Assembly (NCBI GenBank): GCA_965246885.1
Contig: OZ251992.1
Coordinates: forward strand, 3,328,001-3,392,000
Reading direction: 5' to 3'
Origin: Abditibacterium sp.
GTDB lineage: Bacteria; Armatimonadota; Abditibacteriia; Abditibacteriales; Abditibacteriaceae
DNA length: 64,000 nt
The translations under genes were made by a program, and so were the position numbers. Under the pieces are notes generated by a model that ran no database searches, was not told the origin of the DNA, and worked only from the letters and a program-made list of their open reading frames with translations. Below are positions 2,440 through 21,886 of the stretch, in pieces; within the stretch, counting starts at the first letter, position 1; each line of letters begins with the position of its first letter.

Positions 2440-3174
2440 TCAGGCGCCTCCAAGGGCATCCATCCAACGCCGCAAACTGGGGGTGAGTTCCTCCAAAACG
2501 AGGCGGCCACGAAGCGGCGGCGCGCTGTTTTGCCACAGGAAATTGGCGAGGGCTTCCTCGCCCAGCCACAGCCAAAAGCGGTCGTTCTGGTTCCACCCGT
2601 CGCGGTCGGCGTGCGCTTTGACAAGCGCCACGAACACGGGCGAGAACACCACTTCGCACTCGACGAGAGCTTCTTCGGGCGTCTCGATTTGAAAGCGGTG
2701 CGCGAAGCCTCCCGGCGTCTCGTGCGGGGCCGTTTCTTCCACGCCCAGCCGGAAGCCGTTGACGGTCGCGCCGTCCATGATGCCCCCGCTTTCGGGCACG
2801 ATGGGGGGCGCATCATGGGCAAGGGCCGCCGCGACCGCGCCGCGCAAAACCTCAGTCGTGAAGGGCTTGCGCAGGAAGTTGGTCGCCCCGGCGCGTCCGG
2901 CGGCGAGGGCGAGATCTACCGTCCCGAACGCCGTCGCCATGATCACTTTGACGCCCGGTTGCCGCTCTTTGAGGGCGCGCAAAACCTCAATGCCTTCCAT
3001 CTGCGGCATGCGCTGGTCGAGCAGAACCAAGTCGAAGGCGCTCCCGTCGCCGAACTTTTCCAAGGCTTCCGGCCCATCGGCGGCAGTCTGCGCGCGGTGC
3101 CCATCGGCTTGCAAGGCCAGCCGGAGCATAAGCCGGATATTGCTTTCGTCGTCCACGACTAAGATGTTCGCCAT
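2440..3174 (-). CDS. Response regulator: receiver domain plus uncharacterised C-terminal domain
   Basis: ILVVDDE, LLDQRMP (phospho-Asp), ATAFG and KPF. The C-terminal ~115 aa has no recognisable HTH. Confidence 0.85.
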   Translation of the reverse strand: MANILVVDDESNIRLMLRLALQADGHRAQTAADGPEALEKFGDGSAFDLVLLDQRMPQMEGIEVLRALKERQPGVKVIMATAFGTVDLALAAGRAGATNFLRKPFTTEVLRGAVAAALAHDAPPIVPESGGIMDGATVNGFRLGVEETAPHETPGGFAHRFQIETPEEALVECEVVFSPVFVALVKAHADRDGWNQNDRFWLWLGEEALANFLWQNSAPPLRGRLVLEELTPSLRRWMDALGGA

Positions 3175-5022: not shown

Positions 5023-6950
5023 GATGACGTTGGCGACGTGAGAGCGCGCTCCTCTTCCCGGTCGAGCCACGCGTCGAAGTGATACGGCACGTTCACCGCG
5101 ACAACTCCGGGCTTTGAGCGCAGCTTCCACAAGAGCATGAGCGCAGTTTGGCCATGTAGCGCGCGCGCCCACCACGCCGTTGCGATGGCTTCGGGAATGA
5201 CCAGCGTCACCAAGCAACCGGGGTCGTTCGCTTGCAACTCGTCTATCAACCGCAAGACGGGCGCCGCAAGCGCGCGGTAGGGCGATGGCAGGAACTGAAG
5301 TGGCACGCCGCGCCCGTACAAAGTCCACTTCTCGCGCAGGCGCGCTTCTTTTTGCGGGTCGATGGACACATGGATAGCACGCGCATCGGGCGATATGGAG
5401 CGCGCGTATTGCAAGGCGGGAATGACGCCGCGATGCAGGTCGGGCACGAGGACAAGGACGTGGTGCCGCGCGCCTTGGCGCGGGCGGTAGCCCTCCAGCG
5501 ACAGTTGCCGCGCCGCGCCGTCGTAGTAGTGGCGAATCAGGCCAAACAAGAACACGAGCGCGGGCGTGAGGAAAAGGATCATCCACGCGCCGTCGCGGCA
5601 CTTCACGCACGCGAAGACGACCGTTACAACTGCCGTTGCCAAGGAACCAACGGCGTTGACCGTGAGCCGCCCTTGCCAGCCGCGCCCGCGCTCTGCCAAC
5701 CAGTGCTTCACCATACCCGCTTGCGACAGGGTAAACGACAGGAACACGCCGATGGCGAACAAAGGGATGAGCGCATGGACACTGCCGCCAAAGCCAACGA
5801 CCAGCATACTCGCCGCGACTGCCAAAGCGATGATGCCCCGGTCGAAGACGAGCTTATCGCCCACGTTGGCGAGTTGGCGCGGCAGTAGCCCGTCGCGCGC
5901 CATAAGCGAGCACAAGCGCGGAAAGTCGGCGAACGAGGTGTTGCACGACAGCACGAGGATGGCGCAGGTTGCTATCTGGAGCGCCAGATAAAGCGGGCCG
6001 GTGCCAAACACCACGCGCCCCAACTGCGAAAGAACAGTCTCGCTGTAACCCCGCGCGTTGGGCGGAATGGCACCCGCGTGTGCGGCCAGAACGGACACGC
6101 CGATGAACAGACCGCCCAAAAGCACGCCCATCCAGATCATCGTCTTGCCCGCGTTAACTGGAGCGGGGTCGCGGAACGCTTGGACGCCGTTGGAAATGGC
6201 CTCGACGCCCGTCAAGGCGGTGCAACCACTGGAAAAGGCGTGCAATATCAAGAACAGAACGCCGAGCGACTCCAGCTTGGGGAGTTCTCCCTTTTCGCCC
6301 GCCACGCGCGCCGCGAGCAAGTCGGAGGGGGAATGTACCGGGTGCCAGTGCCCAGTCGCCATGAGCGCTAACCCCCATACGATAAGCAGCGCGGTGATGC
6401 CGACGAACCCATAAACCGGAACCGCGAAGAAGACGCCACTTTCTTTGGCGCCGCGCAGGTTCACAAGCGCGATGAACGCCAGAAACCCGACGGCAAGCGG
6501 GACGGTGAAGCGCTCCGCTTGAATCCCGTAGTTCCCCATGAGGGAAACAATCGCCGCCACACCCGCCGACGCGCACACTGCCGCGTTCAAAACGTAATCC
6601 AACAAAAGCGCCGCGCCCGCCGTGCGTCCGGCCTTCGGGCCAAGGTTATCGCCCGCGACGGTGTAAGCGCCGCCGCCTCCCGGATAAGCGCCCAAAGTTT
6701 GGCGATACGACACCACCACAATCGCCAACAACAGCGCCACCGCCCCCGCCAGCCAAGGCGTCCAGCCGAAGTAAGGGACGGCGCCTGCGAGGAGAAGCGC
6801 AGCCATCATTTCTTCGGTCGCAAACGCCACGCTGGACAGGGCATCGGACGCGAAGACGGGGAGCGCGATGAGGTTGGACAGCTTCTGGTGGTGCGCGTCC
6901 GAGGTTTGCAAAGGGTCGCCGATGAGCAGGCGGCGCAAGGAAAAGGTCAT
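5019..6950 (-). CDS. APC-family permease, KimA/YdaO-like (probable K+ transporter)
   Basis: ASDALSSVAFATEE, YPGGGGAY, LTGVEAISNG, LIPLFAIGVF. About 12 TM segments plus a cytosolic C-terminal domain. Confidence 0.85.
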   Translation of the reverse strand: MTFSLRRLLIGDPLQTSDAHHQKLSNLIALPVFASDALSSVAFATEEMMAALLLAGAVPYFGWTPWLAGAVALLLAIVVVSYRQTLGAYPGGGGAYTVAGDNLGPKAGRTAGAALLLDYVLNAAVCASAGVAAIVSLMGNYGIQAERFTVPLAVGFLAFIALVNLRGAKESGVFFAVPVYGFVGITALLIVWGLALMATGHWHPVHSPSDLLAARVAGEKGELPKLESLGVLFLILHAFSSGCTALTGVEAISNGVQAFRDPAPVNAGKTMIWMGVLLGGLFIGVSVLAAHAGAIPPNARGYSETVLSQLGRVVFGTGPLYLALQIATCAILVLSCNTSFADFPRLCSLMARDGLLPRQLANVGDKLVFDRGIIALAVAASMLVVGFGGSVHALIPLFAIGVFLSFTLSQAGMVKHWLAERGRGWQGRLTVNAVGSLATAVVTVVFACVKCRDGAWMILFLTPALVFLFGLIRHYYDGAARQLSLEGYRPRQGARHHVLVLVPDLHRGVIPALQYARSISPDARAIHVSIDPQKEARLREKWTLYGRGVPLQFLPSPYRALAAPVLRLIDELQANDPGCLVTLVIPEAIATAWWARALHGQTALMLLWKLRSKPGVVAVNVPYHFDAWLDREEERALTSPTSS

Positions 6951-6989: not shown

Positions 6990-8534
6990 TCATCCCACCT
7001 GCTTCATCTTCAGCGCGAAGAGTTCGGCATCAATACGCGCGGCGATGCGGCGCCACTCTTCTTCTTCGAGCTTTCCATGTCGCTCGGCATCTTGATACGA
7101 CTTCTTTTCCGCCGCCAGCACCATGATACGCACTTCGGCAGACTGCTTCTCTTCGTGCAAACCGCCGTGCGCCGTAGGGAAAGCGGAGTTCGCTTCCAAC
7201 AATGCCAAGCGCCGCGTGTAATCGTGGGCGAGCGTTTCGATAATCCACTGGGGATACGCTTCGCTCATCCGCAGTTCATCCAAATAGGCAAGCGCGGCCT
7301 GCGTCGCCCCCAATTCGCTTTTCAGCCGCTTGTCATCACCCGGCATGCGCGCGGCCTCCCCGATTACATTCAAGTGCCCAAGCAACGGGCCGATAGTAAG
7401 CCCCTGCACCATCAGCGAAAACATCACAGCGCCAAAAGTGGCGGCGACGAGCGTGTCGCGCCCCGCCAGCCGTGTGGGAAGTCCCATTACCAGCGCCATC
7501 GAAAGCGCGCCGCGTAGTCCGCCCCACACCAAGACGTGTTGCCACGCTCGCGGCACTTGGGCGCCCATGCGGTTGACAATCCACGACAACGGGTAAATCA
7601 CGCTTCGCCCTAATAAAACCAAAAGCGCCGCGCTGAGGGCGAGGGCGATTTTGTGCTTCCAATCGAGTGCCACGACTTCGATGCCAACCAGAAGGAAGAT
7701 CAACGAGTTGACGACGAATCCCGCGTATTCCCAAAAGGCCGTGACCGCGAGGCGAACGCCCGGAGTCATCGCCTGTTGGCCGAAGTTGCCCAGTACAAGC
7801 CCCGCCGCGACCACAGCCATTACCCCCGAAACATGAAGTGTCTCTGCCGCCAAGTAAGACCCGAAAGCCACGAGAGTCGTCAGCGTGATTTCGACCAAAT
7901 GATCGTCCAGATTCTGGTGCAACCGCGTCGCGGCGGCGCCAAGGAGCGCGCCCAGAGCGGTGCCGCCCACGATGAGCCGCAAGAACTGCACGAAGCCCGC
8001 GCCCCACGAAAGCGTCCCGCCCAACGCCGCCGCCGTCAGCACCGAAAATAACACGACGGCCACCCCATCGTTGAACAGGCTTTCGGCTTCCATGATGAGC
8101 GTCAAACGCCGCCCCGCACCCAAGCGTTTGAAAATTGCCAATACCGAGATCGGGTCGGTTGCCGAAATCAACGCTCCAAAAATCAGCGCCGAAAGCAGCG
8201 GCACTCTCAACACCCACGCCGCCGTCACACCCACTAAAATGGTCGAAAGGATCGTCCCGGCAAAGGTGTACACCGCAATGGGCGCCCAGTTGCGGCGTAG
8301 AGAATCGAGTCGCAGATGGAGGGCGGCCTCGAACAGAAGCGGCGGCAGGAACACCGTAAACAGCAACGCCGGTTCGAGATGCGCTCCCGGAAAAAGCCGC
8401 GAGAGTCCGACGAGTAACCCAGTTACCACAAGCGCCAGCGCATAGGGCACGCGCAAGCGTCGCGCTAACAACGCCACCAAGAACGCGATGAGCAGCAACC
8501 AAAAGAACTGCGTGTTGGAGCCAAGGGTGTTCAT
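6990..8534 (-). CDS. CPA1-family Na+/H+ antiporter
   Basis: FLPPLLFEAA, ISATDPISV, ESLFNDG and WGGLRGA are CPA1 motifs. Start set at ATG 8534. Confidence 0.92.
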   Translation of the reverse strand: MNTLGSNTQFFWLLLIAFLVALLARRLRVPYALALVVTGLLVGLSRLFPGAHLEPALLFTVFLPPLLFEAALHLRLDSLRRNWAPIAVYTFAGTILSTILVGVTAAWVLRVPLLSALIFGALISATDPISVLAIFKRLGAGRRLTLIMEAESLFNDGVAVVLFSVLTAAALGGTLSWGAGFVQFLRLIVGGTALGALLGAAATRLHQNLDDHLVEITLTTLVAFGSYLAAETLHVSGVMAVVAAGLVLGNFGQQAMTPGVRLAVTAFWEYAGFVVNSLIFLLVGIEVVALDWKHKIALALSAALLVLLGRSVIYPLSWIVNRMGAQVPRAWQHVLVWGGLRGALSMALVMGLPTRLAGRDTLVAATFGAVMFSLMVQGLTIGPLLGHLNVIGEAARMPGDDKRLKSELGATQAALAYLDELRMSEAYPQWIIETLAHDYTRRLALLEANSAFPTAHGGLHEEKQSAEVRIMVLAAEKKSYQDAERHGKLEEEEWRRIAARIDAELFALKMKQVG

Positions 8535-8617
8535 CAAGCAGTTGCATAGTTTCCTCAAGGGGCAGAGATCTGACTCTTAGCGCAGTGACCTTCCAAACAC
8601 TTCCTTCAATGAGCGGT

Positions 8618-9235
8618 TTATTTTCCTGTCGCGTCGAGCGCCAAATTGAGTTCCAACACGTTGACGCCCGCTTCGCCGAGCACACCTAACCCGCGCCCTT
8701 GTGTATTGGCTTGGATAAGCGACTGGACTTTATCAAGCGACAAGTTGCGCGCTTTGGCGACGCGGGGCGCTTGCAGGGCGGCGTTTTCGGGCGAAATCTG
8801 CGGGTCGAGGCCGCTCGCGGAGCGCGTGACGGCATCGGCGGGGAGCGGCGCGTCGGACGCGAGGTTGTTCTCCGTCCGGTACGCCGCCGCCAATTGCTTG
8901 ATGCCGTCGTAGGCGTCCACTTTGGCCTTCTTGTCTTCCTTGACGCCGTTGATGAGTTTGTCCGATGTCGGGCCAAGGTTGGTGCCGCCCGACGAGGTGG
9001 CGTCGTAGCCGTTTCCGGCGGCGGAGGCGCGCGGGTGGAAGTAGATCGGCTTGGCGAAGGGCTGGCCAATCAAGCGCGAGCCGACGACCTTGCCGTTCTG
9101 TTCGATGAGAGAGCCGTTCGCTTGCGCTGGCATGGCGACCTTGGCGATGAGCGTGATGAGCGCCGGAAAGACGAGGCCGGTCAGGATGGTAAACGCCAGC
9201 ACGGACAGGATGGCGGGGCGAAGTTGTTTGAGCAT
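8618..9235 (-). CDS. kdpC: K+-transporting ATPase subunit C
   Basis: QANGSLI, GSRLIGQPF, YFHPRASA, SASGLDPQIS and VNVLELNLALD. Start ATG 9235. Confidence 0.96.
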   Translation of the reverse strand: MLKQLRPAILSVLAFTILTGLVFPALITLIAKVAMPAQANGSLIEQNGKVVGSRLIGQPFAKPIYFHPRASAAGNGYDATSSGGTNLGPTSDKLINGVKEDKKAKVDAYDGIKQLAAAYRTENNLASDAPLPADAVTRSASGLDPQISPENAALQAPRVAKARNLSLDKVQSLIQANTQGRGLGVLGEAGVNVLELNLALDATGK

Positions 9236-9245
9236 GAGTTTTGGT

Positions 9246-9327
9246 TTAGCCACAGATGAACACCGAGGAACACAGATAAATAAGCCATCCAGAAAATCCG
9301 TGTCCATCCGTGTTCATCTGTGGCTAA
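9246..9327. repeat. REP-like inverted repeat (CACAGATGAACAC type) between kdpB and kdpC
   Basis: TTAGCCACAGATGAACAC pairs with GTGTTCATCTGTGGCTAA. Internal submotifs (ACACAGAT, ATCCGTGT) are repeated. Confidence 0.8.
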
Positions 9328-9334
9328 TAATTTT

Positions 9335-11389
9335 TTACGCGAGGTGCAGCACGACGAGGATTTTGTCGAGGAGCCAGATGCACGGGAAGGGGACGACGAG
9401 GCCGCCCAAGCCGTAGATGAGCAGGTTGCGCTGGAGCGTTTTGGCGGCGCTTTGGGGTTTGTAGGGCACGCCTTTGAGGGCGAGGGGAATGAGCGCGATG
9501 ATGATGAGCGCGTTGAAGATAACCGCCGCAAGGATGGCGCTTTTGTCGTTGGAAAGGCCGATAAAGTTCAGCCGTTGCAAGGCGGGGAAGGTCGCCACGA
9601 ACATGGCGGGGATGATGGCGAAGTATTTCGCCACATCGTTGGCAATGGAGAAGGTGGTGAGCGCGCCGCGCGTCATGAGCAACCCCTTGCCGATTTCCAC
9701 GACTTCGATGAGCTTGGTCGGGTCGGAGTCCAAGTCCACCATGTTGCCCGCTTCTTTGGCGGCCTGCGTGCCGGTGTTCATCGCCACGCCGACGTCGGCT
9801 TGCGCGAGGGCGGGCGCGTCGTTCGTGCCGTCGCCGGTCATGGCGACCAGCTTGCCGTCGGCCTGCTCCTTTTTGATGAGTTCCATCTTGTCTTCGGGCG
9901 TGGCCTGCGCGAGGAAGTCGTCCACGCCCGCCTCGCCCGCGATGGACTTGGCGGTAAGCGGGTTGTCACCGGTAATCATCACGGTGCGGATGCCCATCGC
10001 GCGCAGCGAATCGAAGCGCTCCTTCATGCCGGTCTTCACGATGTCCTTCAGGTAAATAACGCCCAACACGCGGTTGCCCGACGAGACGCCCAAAGGCGTG
10101 CCGCCCAGTTGCGAGATGCGCGTGACTTCGGCGTCGAACTCCGGCGGGACACTGCCGCCGTGCGACTCGACCCACTTTTTCACCGACTCGCCCGCGCCCT
10201 TGCGGACGGACTCGCGCCCGTAGTCCACGCCGCTCATGCGGGTTTGTGCGGTGAACTCGATCCACTCGGCGCCGGGGATGGAGCTTTGCTCGCGGTCGCT
10301 CAAACCGTACTTGTCGCGCGCCAACACGAGGATGGAACGGCCTTCGGGCGTCTCGTCGGCGAGCGAGGACAGTTGCGCGGCCTCGGCGATTTCGCGCTCG
10401 GACACGCCCGGCATGGCGGCGAACTCGGCGGCTTGGCGGTTGCCGTAGGTAATGGTGCCGGTCTTGTCGAGGAGCAGGGTGTTGACATCGCCCGCCGCTT
10501 CGACGGCTTTGCCCGACATCGCCAGCACGTTGTGCTGCATGACCCGATCCATGCCCGCGATGCCGATGGCGCTGAGCAACCCGCCGATGGTGGTGGGAAT
10601 CAAGCAGACGAGCAACGCGACCAGCACGGGAATAGTGGGCGCCGCGCCTTGGCCCGCGCCGCGCACCGAGTAATTGGCGAAGGGCAGAAGCGTCACGACG
10701 GCGAACAGGAAGACGATGGTCAGGCCCGACAGGAGGATGGAAAGCGCAATCTCGTTGGGCGTCTTTTGGCGCTGGGCGCCTTCGACCAAGGCAATCATGC
10801 GGTCCAGAAAAGATTCGCCGGGGTTCTGGGTGATGCGGATAACGATGCGGTCGGACAGAACCTTTGTGCCGCCCGTGACGGCGGAGCGGTCGCCGCCCGA
10901 TTCGCGGATGACGGGCGCCGATTCGCCGGTGATAGCCGACTCGTCCACTGCCGCGACGCCCTCGATGATTTCGCCGTCGCCGGGAATGCCGTCGCCCGCT
11001 TCGCAGACGACGATGTCGCCCTTGCGCAGTTCGCTCGACGCCACGACTTCTTCTTTGCCGTTCACGATGCGGCGCGCGTTGGCCTGCGTTTTGGCTTTGC
11101 GGAGCGTGTCGGCCTGCGCCTTGCCGCGCCCTTCGGCGATGGCTTCGGCGAAGTTGGCGAAGAGGACGGTGAACCACAACCAGAGCGAGATTTGCCCCGT
11201 GAAGAGGGCGTTGCCGGTGTGCCCGAACACGTCCTTGAGCCACAGATAAGTCGTGACGATGGAGCCGACATACACGACGAACATGACCGGGTTCTTGGCG
11301 ACGGCGCGCGGGTCTAACTTGCGAAGCGCGTCGCCCAAAGCGCGGCGCACGATGGCGCCGTCGAACATGGAAACGGATTTGGATTTCAT
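9335..11389 (-). CDS. kdpB: K+-transporting P-type ATPase subunit B
   Basis: [18 protein letters not shown] phosphorylation motif, TGDN and GDGTND. Confidence 0.98.
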
Positions 11390-11404
11390 GGGAGTTCCGA
11401 GGGC

Positions 11405-13153
11405 TTAGGAGAACGTCTTCCCCGCGTTCATCAGGAAGTGTTCGACGACGGGGCCGAGCGCGAGGACGGGGAAGTAGGTAAGCGCGCCAACGATGATGAT
11501 GGTGCCGCACAAGACGGCGACGAAGGTGCCGGAATCGGTCGGGAAGGTGCCGCTCGTGGTGGGCGTGTATTTCTTCTTGGCGAGGCTGCCCGCGATGGCA
11601 AGGAGCGGGATAATCATCAAGAAGCGGCCAACGAGCATGGCGATGCCGAGCGTGACGTTATAGAACGGGGTGTTGGCCGAAAAGCCCGCGAAGGCGCTGC
11701 CGTTGTTGCCGGTCGCGCTCGTGAAAGCGTAGAGAATCTCGCTCAGCCCGTGCGGGCCGGAGTTGTTGACGTTGGAAAACGTCGGGCCGTAGGTGCCATT
11801 GATGCCGCCCGTTGGAAGCGACAAGTTGGCGCCCAAGGCGGCGAAGCCGAGGATGGAGGCGGCGAGGACGAGGACGGCGAGCATGGCCATCTTCACCTCG
11901 TAGCCCTCGATCTTCTTGCCGATGTATTCGGGGGTGCGCCCGACCATCAGGCCCGCGATGAAGACGGCGAGAATGGCGAACATCAGCATGCCATACAAGC
12001 CCGCGCCCACGCCGCCGAAGATGCACTCCCCCGACAGGATGTTGAGGAGCGGCACGAGGCCGCCGATGGGCGTGAAGGAGTCGTGCATGGCGTTGACGGC
12101 GCCGCAACTGGCGTCGGTCGTAATCACCGCGAACAGGGCGGAGTTGGCTATGCCAAATCGCGTCTCTTTCCCTTCCATATTGCCGCCCGGAACGCCAAGG
12201 GCATGGACGAGCGGGTTGCCGACCGCTTCGGCGTTGTAACACACGACGGTGCCCAGCAGAAAGAGGGCGAACATGGCGCCCAGCAGCGCGTAGCCTTGCT
12301 TGACGTTGCCGACCATCTTGCCGAAGGTGTAGGTGAGCGCGGCGGGAATCAGGAAGATGCTGAGCATCTGCAGGAAGTTGCAAAGGGGAGTCGGGTTCTC
12401 GTAGGGATGCGCGGAGTTGGCGTTGAAAAAGCCGCCGCCGTTGGTGCCGAGCATCTTGATGGCTTCCTGCGACGCGACGGGGCCTTGCGCGAGGGTCTGT
12501 TTGGCGCCCTCGACGGTCGTGACCGCCGTGTAGGGGCTAAAGTTCTGCGGCACGCCTTGCCACACTAAAACCAGCGCGAACACAAGCGACAAGGGCAGCA
12601 GGATGTACAGCGTCGAGCGCGTCACGTCCACCCAGAAGTTGCCGATGCCGCTCGCGGTGCGCCGCGCGATGCCGCGCACAAGGGCGATGGCAACCGCCAA
12701 ACCCGCCGCCGCGCTCATCCAGTTGTGAATGGCGAGGGCCACCATGTTCGACCCATACGACACGGTGGCTTCAGGCGTGTAGGCCTGCCAGTTGGTGTTG
12801 GTCGAGAACGACGCGGAGGTATTGAACGCCAGATCGGGCGTCATCTCCTTGCCGCCGAAGCCCTGCGGGTTGAAGGGCAAACTGCCTTGCAAGCGCAACA
12901 GGGCGTAGGTCAGCACGACGCCCACCAGCGAGAACGCCAGAAGCGCGAAAGCATATTGCGTCCACGTCTGGTCGTCGCGGTTCTCGTCCACGCCAAAGGC
13001 GCGATACAGCGCGCGCTCGAAGGGGCCGATAACGGGCGAGAGGACGGTGCGCTCGCCCTCAAACACGCGCGCCATATACGCGCCGAGCGGCTTGACGGTG
13101 AGGAGGAGCACGCCGCAATACAGCAGGATTTGAAGGATTCCTTGGGAAGTCAT
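11405..13153 (-). CDS. kdpA: K+-transporting ATPase subunit A
   Basis: [25 protein letters not shown] and TGNNGSAF pore motifs. Start ATG 13153 (MTSQGILQ). Confidence 0.98.
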
Positions 13154-13157
13154 GGCT

Positions 13158-13244
13158 TTAGAAGCGTTCCGGCTTGAGTAGCGCGAAAAGCAGATAACCG
13201 AGCAGGCCCAGCGACAAGAGGGCGGACAGGATGAGGTCGAACAT
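13158..13244 (-). CDS. kdpF: K+-transporting ATPase subunit F (28 aa)
   Basis: [28 protein letters not shown]. Hydrophobic helix ending in the KdpF signature YL..ALL.PE.F, directly upstream of kdpA. Too short for the ORF track. Confidence 0.93.
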
Positions 13245-13257: not shown

Positions 13258-13341
13258 TTAGGCGCCCTCGCAAAACGACACATAAAGCGCCGCGAGCGCG
13301 AAGAACGCGAGGGTCAAAACGAGCAGGAAAAGGTCGAGCAT
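13258..13341 (-). CDS. Small hydrophobic peptide (27 aa) upstream of kdpF
   Basis: [27 protein letters not shown]. One TM helix, with a GGGAGG RBS 9 nt upstream. Confidence 0.75.
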
Positions 13342-13344
13342 GGC

Positions 13345-13482
13345 TTACGACCTCCCGTCGAAGCGGCGCCCTTGGCAAGCGCGCGCAATGCGCGCTTTTT
13401 GCGCCTTGGTCGGGTGGCAATACAGCCACAGCAAACTGCCCCATGCGGCGCCAACCAGCGCCAAATCTTGAAGACCGTGCAT
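13345..13482 (-). CDS. Putative small protein (45 aa), first ORF after the leader terminator
   Basis: [49 protein letters not shown] lies upstream, and its stop is 3 nt before the next ATG. Confidence 0.45.
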
Positions 13483-13519: not shown

Positions 13520-13587
13520 AAAACGAAAAAGGAGGCCGAAAAGCCGCCACCGCGCGCTTGCGGGTGACTGGCTTTTCGGCCTCCTTT
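13520..13587 (-). terminator. Intrinsic terminator in the kdp operon leader (probable attenuator)
   Basis: Perfect 18-bp stem AAAGGAGGCCGAAAAGCC/GGCTTTTCGGCCTCCTTT with a minus-strand U-tract TTTTTCGTTTT. Confidence 0.85.
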
Positions 13588-13675
13588 GGGACGGGCCGCG
13601 CGGGGAAAGATGTCTGCGCGCGGCCCTTCTTCTTGGCAACCAAGATGGGTTCTTCTATTGTCTTGTCTTTCGACT
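13588..13675 (-). promoter_or_regulatory. Structured 5' leader upstream of the kdp terminator
   Basis: GTC-GAAA-GAC hairpin, A-rich ACAATAGAAGAA, TCTTGG-TTG-CCAAGA hairpin and a 10-bp GGGCCGCGCG/CGCGCGGCCC hairpin. Confidence 0.55.
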
Positions 13676-13681
13676 GCTTCC

Positions 13682-13711
13682 AGATTAGCGCGTTCCCACC
13701 CATTCGCGCAA
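13682..13711 (-). promoter_or_regulatory. Putative sigma70-type promoter for the kdp leader
   Basis: TTGCGC-N18-TAATCT on the minus strand, just after the DUF2294 stop. Confidence 0.35.
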
Positions 13712-13718
13712 GGGCGCA

Positions 13719-14096
13719 TTACCTCCGTCCGGCGAATAGCTTCTCGACGTTTTGCGCCAACACATACACCTCGACCTGCTCGGCGGCCTCGACGCTCAGG
13801 TCGCAGTGGGAACGCAGCACCGGGCAACCCGCCAAGCCCGCCACCACGTCCTCGATTTCGGCGTGATTAATGGAGCGTAACTCTTGCCGCGCGCTTTTGA
13901 TGAGCTTGCGCCCCCCGTCGGATGCGCACAGCTTTTCTTCGACGGATGTGAGAATCGCGGTGCAACGCACCAGCACCATATCGCCGACCAAATGGGCGCG
14001 CACTTCGCCCGGCCCGCGCCCTTGTTGCTCGCGGTGAAAGCGGGTGACGGCGGTGGCAATCTCGGCTTCAAAGGCGCCTTTGGAAGGGAAATTCAT
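13719..14096 (-). CDS. DUF2294 / MpsC-like protein
   Basis: KGAFEAEIATAVTRFHREQQGRGP, LTSVEEKL, GRKLIKSARQEL and SHCDLSV match the family pattern. Start ATG 14096. Confidence 0.85.
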   Translation of the reverse strand: MNFPSKGAFEAEIATAVTRFHREQQGRGPGEVRAHLVGDMVLVRCTAILTSVEEKLCASDGGRKLIKSARQELRSINHAEIEDVVAGLAGCPVLRSHCDLSVEAAEQVEVYVLAQNVEKLFAGRR

Positions 14097-14117: not shown

Positions 14118-15275
14118 TTACGGCAAGGCGAGTTGCAGCGCGCCTAAAAAGCGGGCGGCCCCGGCGCCATTCACCAAGCGGTGATCGCACGTAAGCACCA
14201 AACGCGCGCGGCGTTCCCAACGCAGGCCAGCCTCGCCTACGCGCACGGGTGCATCGTAGGGGGTGCCGATAAAGAGCGTCGCGGTCGCGGGCGGCACGAC
14301 CAAGGGGATGGCCGACAAAATCCCGGCGCGCGACAGGTCGGAGATGATCAGTTGCGCTTCGCCGTGCGACTTTTCCCCGGCGCGAATGGACGCGATCGCG
14401 GCGCGACTGGCGCGGCTAAAGCCCTCGAAGTCGAGCGTTTCGGCGCGCGACACGACGGCGACGGCGAGTTCGTCCGCTTCGAGCGCGACCGCGAACCCGA
14501 CGTTGACGTGCCTCCACTCGCGCAAAAGCCCGCCGCGCTTCCATGTGGAGCAAAAGCGGCGGTGCTCGCCCATCACGCGCGCAATGGCCCAGCCGATGAC
14601 GTGAAGCGGCGTGACTTTGAGCGGGTTGGCGCCAATGTGCGCCGCGCGCTGATTCTCGACTTCGCGCTCGATGGCGTCCCACGACACCTCGATTTCCAAG
14701 ATGGCGGGCACCACTTCGCGCCATGCGCTTTCCAAATGCGCGGCCAAGCGCGCTTGACGGGGCGACAGAGGACGCTCGACGAACGGCTCGAAGGAAGCGG
14801 CTTCGCTGGCTTTGTGTTCGATGTGCGCGCGCAGTTCTCCCTGCGAAACGCGCCCGCCGGAGTCGCGCGCGAGGGTGTCCAACTCGCGCGCTGAAACGCC
14901 CTCGCCCCGTGCGGTTGCGCGTTCGCGCGGCGCGGCGGCGCCGTTGCAAACCGCCCCCGCGCCACTTCCAGCCGCGTGTGCGACCTCGGCGGGCGCATGA
15001 GTGGGAGCGGCAACTTCATCGGGGGCGCCCGTCGCTTGCGGGGTGGCGATGCGGCACACGACAGCGCCGATTTGCGCGTCGTCGTCCACCTTGACCAGCC
15101 ACTCTTCGACCAGCCCCGCGACGGGCGACTCTAAGCTCATGATGGCTTTGTCGGTCTCGATTTCAAGGAGCGGCTCGTCGCGCTCGACGCGCTCTCCGGC
15201 GGCTTTCCAGAGTGTCACGACGCGGGCGCCGACCAAGCCTTCGCCCAATTGGGGGATTTTAAAAGGAAACGTCAT
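14118..15275 (-). CDS. 2-oxoacid dehydrogenase E2 (lipoyl domain plus acyltransferase)
   Basis: Lipoyl motif IETDKAI and C-terminal TCDHRLVNG. Start ATG 15275 overlaps the E1 stop. Confidence 0.85.
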   Translation of the reverse strand: MTFPFKIPQLGEGLVGARVVTLWKAAGERVERDEPLLEIETDKAIMSLESPVAGLVEEWLVKVDDDAQIGAVVCRIATPQATGAPDEVAAPTHAPAEVAHAAGSGAGAVCNGAAAPRERATARGEGVSARELDTLARDSGGRVSQGELRAHIEHKASEAASFEPFVERPLSPRQARLAAHLESAWREVVPAILEIEVSWDAIEREVENQRAAHIGANPLKVTPLHVIGWAIARVMGEHRRFCSTWKRGGLLREWRHVNVGFAVALEADELAVAVVSRAETLDFEGFSRASRAAIASIRAGEKSHGEAQLIISDLSRAGILSAIPLVVPPATATLFIGTPYDAPVRVGEAGLRWERRARLVLTCDHRLVNGAGAARFLGALQLALP

Positions 15276-17215
15276 AACGACAGGGAATGGCGCATTGTCA
15301 AGCGCACCGCGTCCGCGACGCGCTCGGCGTCGGGCAACACCCTCTCCTCCAGTTTGGGGTGAAAGGGCACTTGCACGTCGGGCCGCGTCACCAGTTGCGG
15401 CGGCGCGGCGAAGTAGTCCCACGTCCGCGCTTGCGCTGTCAGGCGCGCGATGACCGTCGCGCCAAAGCTCGCCGTCTCGTTGTCCTCTTGGATGACCACG
15501 AGCCGCCCCGTCTTTTGGAGCGACCGCTCCACGCTCGCCCAATCACACGGCACCAGAAAGCGCAGGTCTATCACTTCCGCCTCGATGTTCTCGCCCGCCA
15601 AAAGCGCCGCCGCTTCGAGCGCGACCTCGACCGTGTTGCCCCACGCGACAAGAGTCGCGTCCCGCCCCGCGCGGCGCGTCAAGGCCCCCACGCCCTGTCC
15701 CCCATTGAGCGCGAGCGGCATGGCGGCCCGCCGGAACAAGCGCTTGGGCAACAGGAGCAGCGTCGGGTCATCGGCGTTCAGAGCGTCCCGAAAGAGTTCG
15801 ACGGCGCACCCCGGCGTCGAAGGCACGCTTACGCGTAGCCCCGGCGTGTGCGTCCACCAGCCCTCCCCGGTCTGCGAATGCCAAGGCCCGCCTGCCGGAA
15901 GATACGCCCCACACGGCGCCAGCAAAACAAGGGGACACGCGAACTCTCCGGCGCTTCGCCAGCGCAATGTCGCGGCCTGATTGACCAACTGATTGAACGC
16001 CGGAGCCAGAAAATCAATGAACTGAATTTCAAAAACAGGCCGCCAACCCGTCGCCGCCAACCCCACGCCCGCTCCGACTATGGTCGCTTCGGCGAGCGGG
16101 GAGTTCTCGACGCGCCCCGGAAACTCGGTCGAAAGTCCCCGCGTCAGCCCGAACACGCCGCCCTTGGGGTCTTCGATGTCCTCGCCAAACAAGAGCACGC
16201 GCGGGTCGTCCGCGAGGGCGCGCCGCAGTTCGGCGCCCAGCGCCTCGACCATCGTTTCTTCGCCACGCGCGTTGGCGTAGGGCAGCTTGTTCGCGGAGGA
16301 GAACTCCGGGACAGCGAGAACGTTGCTCAGGGCTTCCGACGCGACGGGCGCGCGCTCGGCGTTCTGGTAATCGGCGTCCACATCGGCGGCGATGCGCGCC
16401 AAGTCGTCGGCCCAGCCCTCCGCCGTCAGCGCGCCTTCTTCCATCAGCGCGTCGCGCAGGAGGGAAATGGGGTCGCGCGTTGCCATTTCTTCGATGTCCT
16501 CTGCCGTGCGATACACGCGGTGATCGTCCGACAGGGTGTGCGACCACAATCTGTCCAACTCGCACCACAACACGCGCGGGCCGTTTCCCTCGCGCAACTC
16601 CTCGACGGCGCACCGCGCGGCCTTGGAGAGGGCGAGCGCGTCGCGGCCATCCACCCGCGTCAGGATGCCCTCGTTGAGGGCGCCGATGTTCCAAGGCGTC
16701 ATCCGCGCGGTCGGCGTCGAGATGCCGTAACCGTTATCCGCCACGACAAACAAAACCGGCAACGACTCCTGCAAAGCGAAGCAAAGCGCCTCGTAGAACT
16801 CGCCTTGGCGCGTGGAAGCGTCGCCGATAAAGCAGACCGACACGGCGCCGTCCCCACTTTTCTTCATGCCCCACGCGGCGCCCACGCACGGGAGGCACTG
16901 TATCCCCGTCGGCGTGGCGGACGGGAAGATGCCCCCCTTTTGGCTTCCGAAGTGGCTGCTCATCAAGCGCCCCGCGCCGATGCCGTCGCGCTTGCCGAAG
17001 AAATTGAGCGCAATTTGATAATTGGTCTCGCCGCGCGCAAGGGCAACGGCGCGCTCGCGGTAGTAGGGAAACACCCAGTCGCCCTCGCGCAGCGGAGCGC
17101 AAACGGCGGCGAGCGCCTCGTGTCCGGCGCCGGGCACTTGCAAAAACCCGCGCCCTTGGCGCACGAGAATGCCCTCGCGCCGGTCGCCCTCGCGCGAAGT
17201 CGCCATGAGGCGCAA
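15272..17215 (-). CDS. Fused E1 alpha/beta 2-oxoacid dehydrogenase (ThDP-dependent)
   Basis: GHEA, PYYR, ThDP motif GDAST...DNGYGIST, then the beta part GEDIEDPKGGVFG, SPLAEATIVG, EIQFIDF. Start uncertain (TTG 17215 or ATG 17206). Confidence 0.9.
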   Translation of the reverse strand: MRLMATSREGDRREGILVRQGRGFLQVPGAGHEALAAVCAPLREGDWVFPYYRERAVALARGETNYQIALNFFGKRDGIGAGRLMSSHFGSQKGGIFPSATPTGIQCLPCVGAAWGMKKSGDGAVSVCFIGDASTRQGEFYEALCFALQESLPVLFVVADNGYGISTPTARMTPWNIGALNEGILTRVDGRDALALSKAARCAVEELREGNGPRVLWCELDRLWSHTLSDDHRVYRTAEDIEEMATRDPISLLRDALMEEGALTAEGWADDLARIAADVDADYQNAERAPVASEALSNVLAVPEFSSANKLPYANARGEETMVEALGAELRRALADDPRVLLFGEDIEDPKGGVFGLTRGLSTEFPGRVENSPLAEATIVGAGVGLAATGWRPVFEIQFIDFLAPAFNQLVNQAATLRWRSAGEFACPLVLLAPCGAYLPAGGPWHSQTGEGWWTHTPGLRVSVPSTPGCAVELFRDALNADDPTLLLLPKRLFRRAAMPLALNGGQGVGALTRRAGRDATLVAWGNTVEVALEAAALLAGENIEAEVIDLRFLVPCDWASVERSLQKTGRLVVIQEDNETASFGATVIARLTAQARTWDYFAAPPQLVTRPDVQVPFHPKLEERVLPDAERVADAVRLTMRHSLSL

Positions 17216-17295
17216 AAGTGGAATGAAAGAATGGATGATGGAGATTGTAGGACAAGCGGGCCGGGAGAAGGTAGCAACCGTACAAGACTTGGCGT

Positions 17296-17445
17296 CTCCT
17301 TCTTTCTATGCCCGGCGACTGAAGTCGCGGGCAACTCACGGCGAAGCCTCCCTGTGGAGGCTGGAGAGTTGGAAGTGCAGTCGGCGCAGGCCGACTTCGC
17401 CGTCGGTTGCCCGCGACTTCAGTCGCCGGGCATAGAAAGAAGGAG
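17296..17445. repeat. REP/MITE-like palindromic element (CCCGGCGACTRAAGTCGCGG family), copy 1
   Basis: Perfect 40-bp arms (17296-17335 and 17406-17445) enclosing two short hairpins. Confidence 0.9.
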
Positions 17446-17449
17446 CGGG

Positions 17450-19441
17450 TCAGTGCCCCCGCCGTCGTTTGGGCGCCGACTTGCCGCCTTTGCCGCGCCC
17501 GATGGCGGGATGGGCGGGCGCTTGGCGGCGCGGGGGAGACGGGTTATTAAGCGTGAAGCCGAAGTAAGTGAGTTCCTTGTGCGTTGCCGAGGTCGTGCCC
17601 GCTTCCCCCTCAACTGGCTTGGCGAAGCGGCGAACCAGTTCGAGTGGGAGCGCGGTGCCTTCGATGGCGGCACGGGTTTGGCCCGTCCGGTCGGCGAAAA
17701 AGCGCAGCGTTCCGGCGACGACGGCGTTTGGCGCGCAGACGCTGCGGTTCGAGACGCGCGCGTCCTGCCCGTCGGCAGTGCGCTCGTCCATCACGAGGTC
17801 AAAGGGCATCAGGCGCGCGAGCAGTTCGCGGAAGCGGCGGGTCAACTCCTTATCCGCGAGGGGCATTTGGGCCGGTAAGGGCACGCCCAAGGCACGCAAG
17901 GCGGCGGCCATAGCGAGCGCGGCGTCTTCGATGGCCTTGATGAGCACGCCGCGCTCGGTCGCCCACTTTTCGATGGCGGCGGGGTCGAACAAGTGGCGCG
18001 GCAAGCCGTAGACCTCGCCAACATATCCGGCGCGTTGGTAAGCCTCGGCGTAGACGTTATAGGTCGTGAGGTGGTCGCTACCGGGCACGATGAGGCCGTC
18101 TATGTCGCACTCTTCGCGCGTCATGCGGTGCAGGCTTTCGATGGCGCTCATCACGGCGAGGGCGGGCGCGATTTCCCGCTCGGCGACCAAAAGCTCGGCC
18201 CAAGGGTGGTCAACGGGAAGTGCCTCGACCTGCTTGCCATACTTGGATAAGCGGCCCGCTTGCGTGATAAGTCCGCGCGCTTGCAAGTCGGCGACGGCGC
18301 GGCGGTAGGCGGCCTTGTCGAGACGGATGGGCAGTTCCAACTCGTCGGCGCGCACGCCCAAATCGGCGCAGGTGAGGGCAACGCGTTCGCTGTCGCCCGC
18401 CAGTTGAAACTCCGGCGCGACGGGGCGCAGGCGCGCGAAGTCAATGGCACGCTCGGACAAAATCCACACGCGCCCGCCCGCGACGCGGCCATGCACGCGG
18501 CCCGCCATCTGGAGCATCTCGTTGGGGCCAAGCGGCAAGCGCGTCAGGACGTTGCGCCCATTGGAAATCACGTTGGCAAAGCGCGTGTCGTCAATCACGA
18601 CGGTATCCAGCCCGCGCACGTTGAGCGCGCTTTGACCGGCGGCGGTCATGGTGAGGAGGAAGGGCTTCGTCGCGCCTTCGTCTTCCAAAAACGGGCGCAG
18701 CGTCCGCACCGCTTCGCCGCCGTGATAGAACGCGACGTTGATGTCCGGCGCGGCTTCTTGCGCGACCATTGCCGCCGCTTCGACGCCCGCGCGCGTTGGC
18801 AAAAAGACCCCGACGCCGCGCCGCTCGTCGCGCACTTGCGCGAGATAACGCTCGTCCAAGAACTCGGCGGGCGTGCAGTGAAGAACGTTGACGTTGGCGG
18901 CTTTGTCGGGGTCGAAGGAGTAGACTTGGAGTACCTCGGCGGAGCCGAGGTACTCGCGGTAAAAGCGCGGGTCAACTGTCGCCGACAGCCAAATAAAGCG
19001 GCAACCGGCCCGCTTGCCTAAGGCAAGGCAAAGCTCCAACTCGGCGGAAGTCTGGTGAATCTCGTCCACGACAAGCGTGTCCGCGCCGGTGATGTCGCCG
19101 TCCTGAAACCAGCGCCGCGCGATTCCGGTGGTTACGATGAGGACGTTCTGATTGGGCAGTTCGGGCGTGGCCTCGCGCTCGCGGTTCACGACGCCCACGT
19201 TGAGCGGCGCGCCCAAAATCTCTTCGGCAATGGGCCGCACCGCGAGGGTCTTGCCCGTCCCGGTTCCGGCGATGATGCCAAAGCCCCGGCCCGACCGCGC
19301 CAGTTCGCGGACTTTGTCGCCGTGCGTGCGGGAAAGGTAGGTATCGATGTCGAGCGTAAAGGCGATTTCGATGGTTTCGCACGCCGCGCGGGTGGGCGCG
19401 ATGACGATGACGCGGCCTTTGACGGGGTTCGGAGGAAGCAC
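17450..19441 (-). CDS. DExH-box (HrpA/HrpB-like) helicase
   Basis: GTGTGKT, DEIH, SAT, FLPTR and QMAGRVHGR. Start estimated at GTG 19441. Confidence 0.85.
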   Translation of the reverse strand: MLPPNPVKGRVIVIAPTRAACETIEIAFTLDIDTYLSRTHGDKVRELARSGRGFGIIAGTGTGKTLAVRPIAEEILGAPLNVGVVNREREATPELPNQNVLIVTTGIARRWFQDGDITGADTLVVDEIHQTSAELELCLALGKRAGCRFIWLSATVDPRFYREYLGSAEVLQVYSFDPDKAANVNVLHCTPAEFLDERYLAQVRDERRGVGVFLPTRAGVEAAAMVAQEAAPDINVAFYHGGEAVRTLRPFLEDEGATKPFLLTMTAAGQSALNVRGLDTVVIDDTRFANVISNGRNVLTRLPLGPNEMLQMAGRVHGRVAGGRVWILSERAIDFARLRPVAPEFQLAGDSERVALTCADLGVRADELELPIRLDKAAYRRAVADLQARGLITQAGRLSKYGKQVEALPVDHPWAELLVAEREIAPALAVMSAIESLHRMTREECDIDGLIVPGSDHLTTYNVYAEAYQRAGYVGEVYGLPRHLFDPAAIEKWATERGVLIKAIEDAALAMAAALRALGVPLPAQMPLADKELTRRFRELLARLMPFDLVMDERTADGQDARVSNRSVCAPNAVVAGTLRFFADRTGQTRAAIEGTALPLELVRRFAKPVEGEAGTTSATHKELTYFGFTLNNPSPPRRQAPAHPAIGRGKGGKSAPKRRRGH

Positions 19442-19464
19442 AAGGGAAGTGTGGGGCGCTCCGC

Positions 19465-20286
19465 TTACGTCCGGCGCGCGCGGATGGCGCCATAGCGGAC
19501 TTCCCGCGACGACAGCAAGCGGTAAATGCGCGATCCGGGCATGCCCGCAAAGTCCGCGAAGGGCGCGCGCAGCCACGTCGGGACGTGCCCCAAAATGTCG
19601 CGCTCCTTGGCGGGCGCGATGTAGTCGAGGGCGCGCACCACGTTCGGCGTAATGTCGGTATCGTCCTCGATGGCAAAGCCCGCCGCCACGAACTCCGCGC
19701 GCAACTCGTCCCACTTCGGGCGCGGGCGCATGTCGCACCAACAGAACACGCCGTCCGGCGCGAGCACGCGCGCCACCTCCGCGAGGAACCCCGGCATGGA
19801 CGGGTAGCAATGCGACGACTCCACGTTGACCACGACATCGAACGTGCCCGCTTCAAGCGGCAAAGCGAGGGCGTTGCCCTGCCGAAAGCGCAAGTGCGGC
19901 GCGTCGTGCAGCTTTTGGGCGAGCAGGACGGCTTGCTCGGAGTAGTCCAGCCCCATCATCAAGCGCGGCGCCCGGTGGCGCGCCAGATAATTGGCTCCGC
20001 CGCCCCGCCCCGACCCGACCTCGACCACCCTCTGACCTTCCAAGGGCACCCCGCGCGTCACGCGCTCGTACAAACCGATAAAGGGCCGATCGGCATCGCC
20101 GCGCGCGTCCAACTCAAGGCGTTCGACCACGTCGTCCATGAAGCCGTAGTTCATAAACGTCCAATCGCCCTGCGAATAGCGGCGGGCGAGCAGTTCATAC
20201 CACGCCTTCCACAGGTCGGCCTTGAGGCGCGGGAAAGCGTCGGTTTGCGCGAGGAGTTTGAGAACGGGTTCGCTCAGGGTTTTCAT
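19465..20286 (-). CDS. Class I SAM-dependent methyltransferase (lipid/fatty-acid O-methyltransferase-like)
   Basis: FMNYG, VVEVGSGRGGG and FDVVVNVESSHCY. Confidence 0.88.
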   Translation of the reverse strand: MKTLSEPVLKLLAQTDAFPRLKADLWKAWYELLARRYSQGDWTFMNYGFMDDVVERLELDARGDADRPFIGLYERVTRGVPLEGQRVVEVGSGRGGGANYLARHRAPRLMMGLDYSEQAVLLAQKLHDAPHLRFRQGNALALPLEAGTFDVVVNVESSHCYPSMPGFLAEVARVLAPDGVFCWCDMRPRPKWDELRAEFVAAGFAIEDDTDITPNVVRALDYIAPAKERDILGHVPTWLRAPFADFAGMPGSRIYRLLSSREVRYGAIRARRT

Positions 20287-20310
20287 GGGTCGGGGGAGAG
20301 GGTTCGGGGG

Positions 20311-21723
20311 TTAGCGGCGCTCGATGGTCATCGGCAGGCCGCCATCGGGCAAGACGGAAATCCACGCGCGCGGGGTCACTTCGCGCTCCGGCGCAACAAG
20401 CATCCGGTAACGCTGAAGGAGCGTCGCCAACACGAGCGGGCCTTGCAACAGCGCCAACCCCGCGCCCATGCAAAAGCGCGAGCCGCCGCCAAAAGGGAAG
20501 TAGGTGTATTTGGGACGGTCGGCTTTAACAGCGCCCAGAAAGCGTTCGGGACGAAACGCGTCCGGTTCGGGCCACCAACGCGGGTCGCGGTGCGTCAGCC
20601 ACGACACCAGCACGATGCAGGTGTTCTTCGGGATGAAATGCCCCCGGATGGCGTCGTCCGCCAGCGCTGTGCGCGCGACGGTCGGGATGGGCGGGAACAT
20701 GCGCAGCGTCTCGTCATAGACGGCGCGCAGGTAAGGCAGGTTGGGCAAATCGGCGGCGGTAGGCGTGCGACCGTTTAGCACCTCTTCGAGTTCCGCGACC
20801 AAGCGCGCTTCGGCTTCGGGGTGGCGCGAAAGCAGATACTGCGCCCACACCACGCTTGAAGTCGTCGTGTCCTGTCCGGCGCGCACGAGCGCGTGCATCT
20901 CGCCCGCGATCTCCTCGTCCGTCCAGCCGACGCCATCGGCGTCCGTTGCGCCCATCAGCACGTCCAGCAAGTCGGTCGGTTCGTCGCTCGCCGCGCCGCG
21001 CGCGCGGCGCTCGTCCACGATGTCCCTCATGGCGCGGATAATGGAACCCTTGGCGCGGGCAAAGCGGCGGCGGCGCGGCGACGTCAGGCGCTTGAGGACG
21101 GGCGTGTTCTCGTGCAGCCACACTAAATTCACGTCGGGAAACGCCACGTCGCGGCCCTTTTCGAGCGTTTCTATCTGCGCCCCGAAATCCGTTCCGAGCA
21201 GCATCTTGCCCGCCACACGCAGCGTCAAATCCATTAGCTCCGGCACCATATCGAAGGTGTCGTCCCCACTTTGTAGCCGCTTCTCCCAACGATTCACCGT
21301 CACGCCCGCTTGATCGGTGATGCAGTCGGCCATACCATTCAAGCGCGCGCGGGTAAAGGAGGGCATCTCCAGCTTGCGCCGCATTTTGTGGTCTTGCCCT
21401 TCGGCGGCGAGGATGCACGGCCCGAACATCGTCAAATAGCGCGAGCGCAACATCCCCGCGTTGGGGTAGTTGGCAGAGTTGGTTTCGATGACGTACGCGA
21501 TGTCGTCCGGGTGCGACAACACATGCAGGTCGAAGCGCGACCCCAGTCGGCCCAAGCCCAGCATCTGCAACTTCGACAGGTCGCCGTGTGAATTATTGGC
21601 GTGGTTGAACGCGGTCAGCGAGTTGTGGCGCAGTTCGGGCAAATGGCCGAGCAACCAATGCCCACGCGGGCCGGGAACGGCGGGGAAACGAGAAAACGGC
21701 GCGGGCGAAGCGGAAGAAACCAT
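20311..21723 (-). CDS. Cytochrome P450
   Basis: I-helix AGQDTT, ETLR, PERF and heme motif FGGGSRFCMG. Confidence 0.96.
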   Translation of the reverse strand: MVSSASPAPFSRFPAVPGPRGHWLLGHLPELRHNSLTAFNHANNSHGDLSKLQMLGLGRLGSRFDLHVLSHPDDIAYVIETNSANYPNAGMLRSRYLTMFGPCILAAEGQDHKMRRKLEMPSFTRARLNGMADCITDQAGVTVNRWEKRLQSGDDTFDMVPELMDLTLRVAGKMLLGTDFGAQIETLEKGRDVAFPDVNLVWLHENTPVLKRLTSPRRRRFARAKGSIIRAMRDIVDERRARGAASDEPTDLLDVLMGATDADGVGWTDEEIAGEMHALVRAGQDTTTSSVVWAQYLLSRHPEAEARLVAELEEVLNGRTPTAADLPNLPYLRAVYDETLRMFPPIPTVARTALADDAIRGHFIPKNTCIVLVSWLTHRDPRWWPEPDAFRPERFLGAVKADRPKYTYFPFGGGSRFCMGAGLALLQGPLVLATLLQRYRMLVAPEREVTPRAWISVLPDGGLPMTIERR

Positions 21724-21886
21724 AAAACAGGGCGCACTTTGCGGGAACAAAAACCGTTATAGCTTAACGCACGCGCTTTTCTCGTTCCAAGAGGGGCGTG
21801 GTTTCACCACTGGCATCGCGCACCGAGTCAGCGCCTCTCGTCTTGCCCCAACCGCCTTCCCGCGACCCCAAAATGGTGTGGGCGGG

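Follow-up and report, generated by a model that had tools for sequence, protein, structure and literature searches.

An attenuator RNA tied to MpsC (DUF2294) ahead of an Abditibacterium kdp operon suggests that MpsC may be an RNA-binding switch able to replace the usual DNA-binding regulator

In the BglG/SacY/LicT systems, an RNA hairpin with two internal loops (RAT) overlaps an intrinsic terminator, attenuators are located on both sides of the regulator gene, and the default state is OFF. The ANTAR regulators AmiR, NasR, and EutV have a three-helix ANTAR domain, twin hexaloop hairpins, and two-component control of termination, and the c-di-AMP (ydaO) riboswitch controls kdp and kimA in Bacillota. 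In the sections consulted here, PMC9337991 and PMC9646797 describe the Na+-I (DUF1646) and Li+ riboswitches, like the leader analyzed below, as ON switches ahead of ion transport genes. The consulted sections of PMC6689103 place Staphylococcus aureus MpsC, of the same Pfam family as the protein studied here, beside a bicarbonate transporter; there, MpsC is reported as dispensable and is given no function, loss of mpsC left growth unaffected, mpsAB alone complemented E. coli, and mpsA expression was lower in 5% CO2.

The window, a 64,000-nucleotide stretch of DNA related most closely, among named organisms, to Abditibacterium and other Armatimonadota, carries a kdp island entirely on the minus strand. 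The order is fused E1, E2, mpsC, a 236-nt gap, ORFs of 45 and 27 amino acids (aa), and kdpFABC, followed on the same strand by genes for a CPA1 antiporter, an APC permease, a HAMP-PAS kinase, a response regulator, and a KdpD-N/Usp protein.

13719 to 14096, minus: MpsC/DUF2294 gene, 125 aa, ATG start (Pfam PF10057, E = 6.6e-29)
13682 to 13711, minus: promoter-like site with −35 TTGCGC (13711-13706), 18-nt spacer, and −10 TAATCT (13687-13682); a weak match
13650 to 13661, minus: A-rich single-stranded stretch ACAATAGAAGAA
13578 to 13641, minus: conserved antiterminator hairpin (alignments and pair counts)
13520 to 13587, minus: intrinsic terminator of 18 perfect pairs (13587-13570 with 13545-13528), inner stem, and U-tract (folding)
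13345 to 13482, minus: 45-aa ORF, no Pfam or NCBIfam family, 51 to 62% identity in four close loci
13258 to 13341, minus: 27-aa hydrophobic ORF ahead of kdpF; comparable ORFs in many related loci (by eye)
8618 to 13244, minus: kdpFABC (Pfam and start assignment)
13158 to 13244, minus: kdpF (Pfam)
11405 to 13153, minus: kdpA (Pfam)
9335 to 11389, minus: kdpB (Pfam)
8618 to 9307, minus: kdpC, start uncertain (Pfam)
6990 to 8558, minus: CPA1 Na+/H+ antiporter (domain search)
5019 to 6950, minus: APC permease, possibly a KimA-like K+ transporter (domain search)
3187 to 5010, minus: histidine kinase, HAMP-PAS-HisKA-HATPase (domain search)
2440 to 3174, minus: atypical response regulator, a receiver plus an acidic C-terminal domain of about 113 aa without a Pfam family (domain search)
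1240 to 2436, minus: KdpD N-terminal sensor plus Usp domain, kinase domain absent (best match NF038185, under its cut-off)

The MpsC gene lies where a first, sequence-only reading of this DNA had placed it, and PF10057 is the sole family matched by the protein (100.7 bits, against a curated Pfam cut-off of 23). The same reading had listed small ORFs and kdpFABC after the terminator, an 18-bp perfect terminator with a U-tract (13587/13528), three hairpins, and no ydaO consensus, and each of these was borne out by Pfam and start assignment, by folding, or by an Rfam scan. The three small hairpins are part of the minimum-energy fold of the leader (z = −6.2, better than all 200 shuffles), and the middle one competes with the conserved helix described below. 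No Rfam family was found in the window leader or in 20 related loci; searches at gathering and E-value thresholds gave chance matches to the terminator only. The promoter claim held in part: sequence and spacing are as described and the position is conserved, but the site has just 6 of 12 consensus bases and was missed by a consensus promoter scan. In a comparison of 20 leaders picked by hand, TTG-N17-18-TAnnnT occurred 41 to 43 nt upstream of the motif in the window and in four of the six other Abditibacterium-type leaders scored, and the distant leaders scored had near-consensus promoter sites ahead of the motif. Similarly, the A-rich stretch is present at 13661 but is only loosely kept, and only in the closest relatives.

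By its computed folds, the leader is an attenuator whose default state is OFF, and it contains a genuine antiterminator. Its hairpin, the only copy in its own genome, is closed by a helix (P1) of GGUUGCC (13641-13635) with GGAGGCC (13584-13578), paired in the order G-C, G-C, U.G, U.G, G.A, C-G, C-G; above P1 lie an internal loop, the pairs 13629-13590 and 13628-13591, a purine internal loop, and a variable P2 (13626-13617 with 13602-13593). Because the 3′ strand of the hairpin is the start of the 18-bp terminator, an antiterminator exists, and the earlier statement that there was no obvious intrinsic antiterminator helix does not hold: the covarying GGUUGCC/GGAGGCC helix overlaps the terminator 5′ arm, which includes the P1 3′ strand. 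In the window, the terminator fold reaches −87.2 kcal/mol versus −65.2 kcal/mol with P1 enforced, a difference of 22 kcal/mol. The terminator claims the P1 strand in 22 of the 23 copies (of 36) that the script could score, 13 being left out, with a median of 10.8 kcal/mol. P1 nevertheless forms unaided in some nascent transcripts, with a pair probability of 0.69 in the one ending at 13575 and 0.50 at 13540.

A conserved RNA motif next to DUF2294 homologues, whose absence would have refuted the sequence-only proposal, was found. Its elements follow the order GGUUGCC, 6 to 7 nt, AAGG, a variable hairpin, GUC, a short linker, GGAGGCC, and a terminator starting in GGAGGCC. Across 38 close copies, collected with P1 pairing (and not the inner pairs) as a selection criterion, 93% of cells are paired, with C-G in 26 copies and A-U in 11 at one P1 pair, and G-C in 21 and C-G in 10 at one inner pair; sliding the partners lowers pairing to 20 to 52%. 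In the broad set, two P1 positions are paired in 62/62 copies, with three pair types each. Among 21 close loci, 19 had downstream sequence, and in 18 of these the hairpin and terminator follow the mpsC stop (17 found by pattern, L018 additionally, none in L019). Where upstream sequence was available, 11 of 20 loci have another motif copy, again with a terminator, ahead of mpsC; the window is without such a copy. Since most copies are downstream of mpsC, mpsC itself is often not under motif control. Further copies are distant from any mpsC stop, ahead of kdp in genomes G054 and G305 and ahead of a permease in G013. At three loci a degenerate MpsC gene, lacking the GRGP loop, lies directly beside kdp and the leader is absent; a fourth, in G242, was outside the leader comparison.

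We hypothesize that MpsC prevents termination by binding the hairpin as it is transcribed, the layout resembling bgl and the input ANTAR, and on comparative sequence evidence we put the probability of this reading at about 0.68. RNA polymerase would start just past the mpsC stop, and the nascent RNA would fold into the long irregular hairpin, whose two conserved internal loops the covariation reveals. If unheld, the hairpin would lose its 3′ strand to the far more stable terminator and transcription would stop near 13520, the two conformers being mutually exclusive and the OFF default computed. Active MpsC may hold the internal loops through a conserved basic surface, permitting read-through into kdpFABC, the antiporter, the permease, and the signaling genes. 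In the K+ clade, gene context and receiver-MpsC fusions suggest that MpsC activity may be set by a split Kdp sensor made up of the non-kinase KdpD, the HAMP-PAS kinase, and the receiver protein, whose acidic tail would control MpsC. Such a module would replace the DNA-binding KdpE, and the same protein-RNA pair is located ahead of CO2/bicarbonate genes in other lineages. As in BglG/SacY/LicT, an irregular two-loop hairpin overlaps the terminator in a mutually exclusive manner, attenuators flank mpsC at many loci, and the default is OFF; unlike them, MpsC is without CAT and PRD domains (PF10057 alone was found), its hairpin is 41 to 69 nt long with a variable apical stem and another consensus, and its input appears to be two-component rather than PTS phosphorylation. 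MpsC/DUF2294 proteins are most likely a new antiterminator family, presumably with a mechanism of known kind. Protein-mediated antitermination, as first proposed for this locus, has gained strong comparative support (the motif tracks MpsC and not kdp, it flanks mpsC at many loci, and DNA-binding KdpE is absent from the loci), but neither the antiterminator helix nor the atypical two-component module had been part of that proposal. Against the reading stand the unaffected growth of S. aureus without mpsC, the many MpsC genes that have no motif beside them, the motif copies in genomes where MpsC was not found, and an MpsC fold with no clear counterpart among known RNA-binding proteins.

The motif follows MpsC rather than kdp across genomes. 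Among 61 relatives, MpsC was found in 20, kdpA in 24, and the motif in 16, all of them MpsC positive; none of the 41 MpsC-negative relatives has it. In 150 genomes of the phylum (MpsC in 32, kdpA in 47), a broader RNA model matched 17 at E ≤ 0.001, 16 of which have MpsC, most positives belonging to the model training set (G013, G214, G218, G305, G308, and G313 did not). No strong match was found in the 22 kdpA-positive, MpsC-negative genomes of this sample. This search used strict filters, which missed real copies in G020, G247, and G281, and the kdp loci of MpsC-negative genomes were therefore fetched directly; 20 such loci, from 19 of the 22 genomes, gave no motif match below E 0.09. Among 16 fetched loci with intact MpsC, the model matched 15, and inspection by eye showed a variant in the sixteenth. 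Nine weak matches in MpsC-negative genomes (E 0.003 to 0.03) were rejected as coding sequence or as being without a terminator. Exceptions are G297, with a motif and no clear gene after it (completeness, 95%), and G237, with a motif ahead of a permease (80%), in both of which MpsC was not found, as well as G249, which has an atypical regulator and no MpsC (88%). In a tree of 63 rows with L140 dropped, the K+ MpsC proteins group on one branch with strong support (100/100), so the tallies represent few independent events. Separately, KdpA matches its profile in two pieces (to about residue 430 and from about 433) in G039, G214, G218, G223, G250, G261, G305, G308, and G313, which points to an insertion of some 40 to 55 residues.

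Beyond the K+ clade, a real conserved attenuator RNA is tied to MpsC/DUF2294 in several lineages. The best 80 of 571 confirmed distant metagenome loci gave weak matches to the first RNA model directly after the mpsC stop. With a descriptor, the element was detected in 32 of 73 windows after mpsC at distant loci, compared with 6/287 windows that follow other ORFs at these loci and 41/3316 in the own genome. The broader model, trained on 36 of these 80 loci, matched within 350 nt of the mpsC stop in 45 of the 80 and recovered 6 of the 37 held-out loci with enough sequence. An adjacent motif is absent from 35 of the 80, from L019, L023-L026, and L067, and from fdhD-linked mpsC genes. P1 words are clade specific in the distant copies (GGAAGAC/GUAAGCC, GGCAGAU/AUAGGCC, and GGUAGGC/GCAGGCC), and five positions are invariant across the broad alignment. 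Copies in Bacillota, such as Anoxybacillus mpsC-motif-sbtA and Acetoanaerobium mpsC-motif-MFS, were not scored by model R1; they were found by the descriptor and then added to R2. Most of the 56 chosen downstream proteins that were scanned were GTP-PEPCK; the others included DUF4914, DabB/DabA, citrate synthase, aminotransferases, MFS carriers, and second, divergent copies of MpsC. As the targets vary (PEPCK, DUF4914, DabBA, SbtA, MFS), it is MpsC that is constant and not a regulated function.

Several features of these loci are recorded in their own right. Divergent second MpsC copies without the GRGP loop are often downstream of the motif (L122:4564-4941, L125:4618-4977, L154:6596-6973, L180:6581-6961, L192:2111-2494, and others) and are possible feedback inhibitors or heterodimer partners. 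Motif copies with terminators also lie away from the mpsC stop (L152:4834-4889, L186:4248-4310, and L194:899-959), the L152 copy preceding, by eye, a PurE-like gene; L281:3745-3807 is a motif match that was not read. Anoxybacillus mpsC (L065:7810-7975) is preceded by a longer hairpin with its base overlapping a terminator, possibly a large variant of the element, and a distant DUF2294 subfamily beside fdhD/formate dehydrogenase genes in Bacilli (L286, L287, and L288) has no model match. In staphylococci the leader of mpsA, the first gene of the bicarbonate transporter, is long and has a strong terminator at its end (L285:1373-1583); staphylococcal mpsA leaders were not scored by the RNA model built here, and a hand-drawn long-range helix in one was discarded, as it is not the minimum-energy fold.

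If the hairpin were instead an unrecognized riboswitch, for an ion, pH, bicarbonate, or a nucleotide such as c-di-AMP, mpsC would merely be a co-regulated accessory. Such a switch would fit the ON-switch architecture with an aptamer strand overlapping the terminator, as Na+-I is described in part of PMC9337991, the invariant G, A, and C positions in noncanonical loops, the orphan motif copies of G297 and G237, and the S. aureus mpsC mutant without a phenotype (PMC6689103, sections consulted). We consider it unlikely, however: the RNA is one hairpin without branches, just five of its bases are invariant, its loop sequences differ from clade to clade, it is missing from the kdp loci of MpsC-negative genomes and where MpsC is degenerate, and its copies mostly follow mpsC and so often leave mpsC outside motif control. 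In addition, the targets range from K+ uptake to carbon metabolism, and the same motif ahead of carbon-metabolism genes weakens the ion-sensing alternative that had been raised for this leader. The MpsC-linked RNA shares a 5′ GGUUG start with tested Na+-I constructs, but it is one hairpin with a long-range P1, whereas Na+-I, in the consulted sections, folds as two separate hairpins, the P2 loop being G-rich and conserved (PMC9337991). Identity with Na+-I was rejected on this difference in structure and on the RF03071 searches, which gave no match in the window or its own genome and none over the cut-off in 31 genomes. With ydaO the RNA shares the attenuation of the same kinds of K+ uptake genes, but it is without an Rfam match, much smaller, and linked to a protein family.

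The signaling genes differ from the usual ones as well. Like KdpDE, the island has a KdpD sensor domain, a kinase, and a receiver beside kdpFABC; unlike it, the window KdpD consists of KdpD-N and Usp without a kinase domain of its own, the kinase is a separate HAMP-PAS protein, and the regulator has no OmpR-type DNA-binding domain. A regulator with receiver and Trans_reg_C (KdpE) is present in 13 of the 20 MpsC-negative kdp loci; six others showed none in the fetched stretch, and one (G249) has an atypical regulator. The atypical regulator tail occurs in 16 of 16 intact-MpsC loci versus 1 of 20 MpsC-negative loci, the HAMP-PAS kinase in 16 of 16 fetched MpsC loci, and the non-kinase KdpD-N in 15 of 16 within the stretch. 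The window regulator and 20 regulators from MpsC loci or G249 have a receiver only, Trans_reg_C being absent. G013 provides an internal control, with one locus carrying MpsC, motif, permease, kinase, and atypical regulator and a second carrying kdpA with KdpE and no motif. Alongside the hairpin, its overlap with the terminator, and the linkage to MpsC, these comparisons demonstrate an exchange with KdpE. One or two extra paralogues of the atypical regulator occur in the same kdp island at L260, L261, L262, L264, and L273, and in P0129 most of MpsC is joined to a KdpD sensor domain, which may be an assembly or frameshift artifact.

The regulator tail, or some general factor, might also be the protein that binds the RNA, leaving MpsC as adaptor, sensor, or inhibitor. 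In the K+ clade the tail co-occurs with the motif as tightly as MpsC does, the MpsC fold yields no RNA-binding assignment, and the divergent second MpsC copies after the motif make heteromers plausible. We nonetheless regard another binder as quite unlikely: the tail is acidic (pI 4.7), is without a Pfam family, and is found in none of the 80 distant MpsC loci, where the motif persists, and it is therefore a poor candidate for a general RNA binder and a fair one for a partner of MpsC. A fold search with the full regulator matched the receiver domain alone.

As for MpsC as the RNA binder, the AF2 model (pLDDT 93) predicts an alpha/beta domain, and the protein as a whole has no strong basic character (pI 6.5). 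Across 90 close and 54 distant sequences, the residues K8, R24, R29 (in the GRGP loop), R35, R46, K69, and R72 (numbered on the 127-aa ORF from 14102) stay basic among distant members. MpsC had no sequence match in the PDB and no Foldseek match at E ≤ 0.001, and the Atlas gave leads under 0.8 only; the best Z in the fold search was 6.7, with RbfA entries at 5.1 and 4.5 among unrelated rows. Receiver-MpsC fusions number 78 among 120 listed of the 718 longer homologues of one distant member, a frequency that indicates the pattern of an output domain and recalls the ANTAR regulators, in which a receiver is likewise joined to an RNA-binding output domain, putative here. The ANTAR domain itself is absent from both MpsC and the response regulator, the MpsC domain is predicted to be alpha/beta, the target is one long hairpin, and the window receiver is a separate protein. 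A suspected CsrA-MpsC fusion found no support beyond one weak 15-residue match among 65 proteins.

We find it very improbable that MpsC acts negatively, by promoting termination, blocking an activator, or acting on promoter DNA, with basal read-through from kinetic folding of the hairpin. This would fit the S. aureus loss of mpsC without a growth defect and the lower mpsA expression in 5% CO2, as the consulted sections of PMC6689103 give them, and the unaided formation of P1 in nascent transcripts, but the conserved features sit on the antiterminator conformer, and with a terminator so much more stable (22 kcal/mol in the window, and winning in 22 of 23 scored copies) a stabilizer is needed. 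That the hairpin is simply the ordinary terminator of an E1-E2-mpsC transcript, with a separate kdp promoter downstream, is hardly credible, since the E2 stop 21 nt ahead of the mpsC start and the weak promoter match are outweighed by the covariation of the upstream hairpin, the positional conservation of the promoter-like site, the absence of E1/E2 beside MpsC in 16 compared loci, and the motif copies far from mpsC stops in G054, G305, and G013.

The antitermination reading can be extended, and we lean slightly toward this wider version: MpsC/DUF2294 proteins may be widespread, unrecognized RNA-binding antiterminators and response-regulator output domains with a cognate hairpin, gating bicarbonate/CO2 genes (DabBA, SbtA, PEPCK, and DUF4914) in many bacteria and perhaps sensing inorganic carbon, with one clade rewired under a split KdpD to replace KdpE at K+ operons. 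If true, a family whose present name comes from a transporter that MpsC does not serve would gain a function, and there would be a new antiterminator protein class, a new two-component output domain, and a candidate mechanism for the regulation of bicarbonate transport and PEPCK in heterotrophic and anaerobic bacteria; it would also mean that control of kdp has shifted from the DNA level to the RNA level with no role for c-di-AMP. A riboswitch, if that is what the RNA proves to be, would define a new class associated with K+- and carbon-linked genes, and a 125-aa protein together with a 64-nt RNA would allow a test between the two. No description of the MpsC-linked element was found in the literature searched, although it may be listed in survey supplements or elsewhere; the main texts of PMC11109978, PMC8632094, and PMC6429828 do not contain mpsC, DUF2294, kdp, PEPCK, bicarbonate, or potassium.

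Elsewhere in the window, genes for a fused E1 alpha-beta plus E2, a DEAD-type helicase, a methyltransferase, and a cytochrome P450 lie upstream of mpsC (14118-21750, minus), with a linkage to mpsC that is not conserved. A Guanidine-I riboswitch (89 bits; 25390-25492, plus) precedes two DUF1989 genes, a urea-type carboxylase, and an allophanate hydrolase (25355-32709), with an NMT1-type ABC transporter in the opposite direction, and a tRNA gene (Rfam) is located at 57259-57332 (minus). A tandem repeat with a period of about 21 nt on a small contig (G000:C2:33312-33495) accounts for nine pattern matches.
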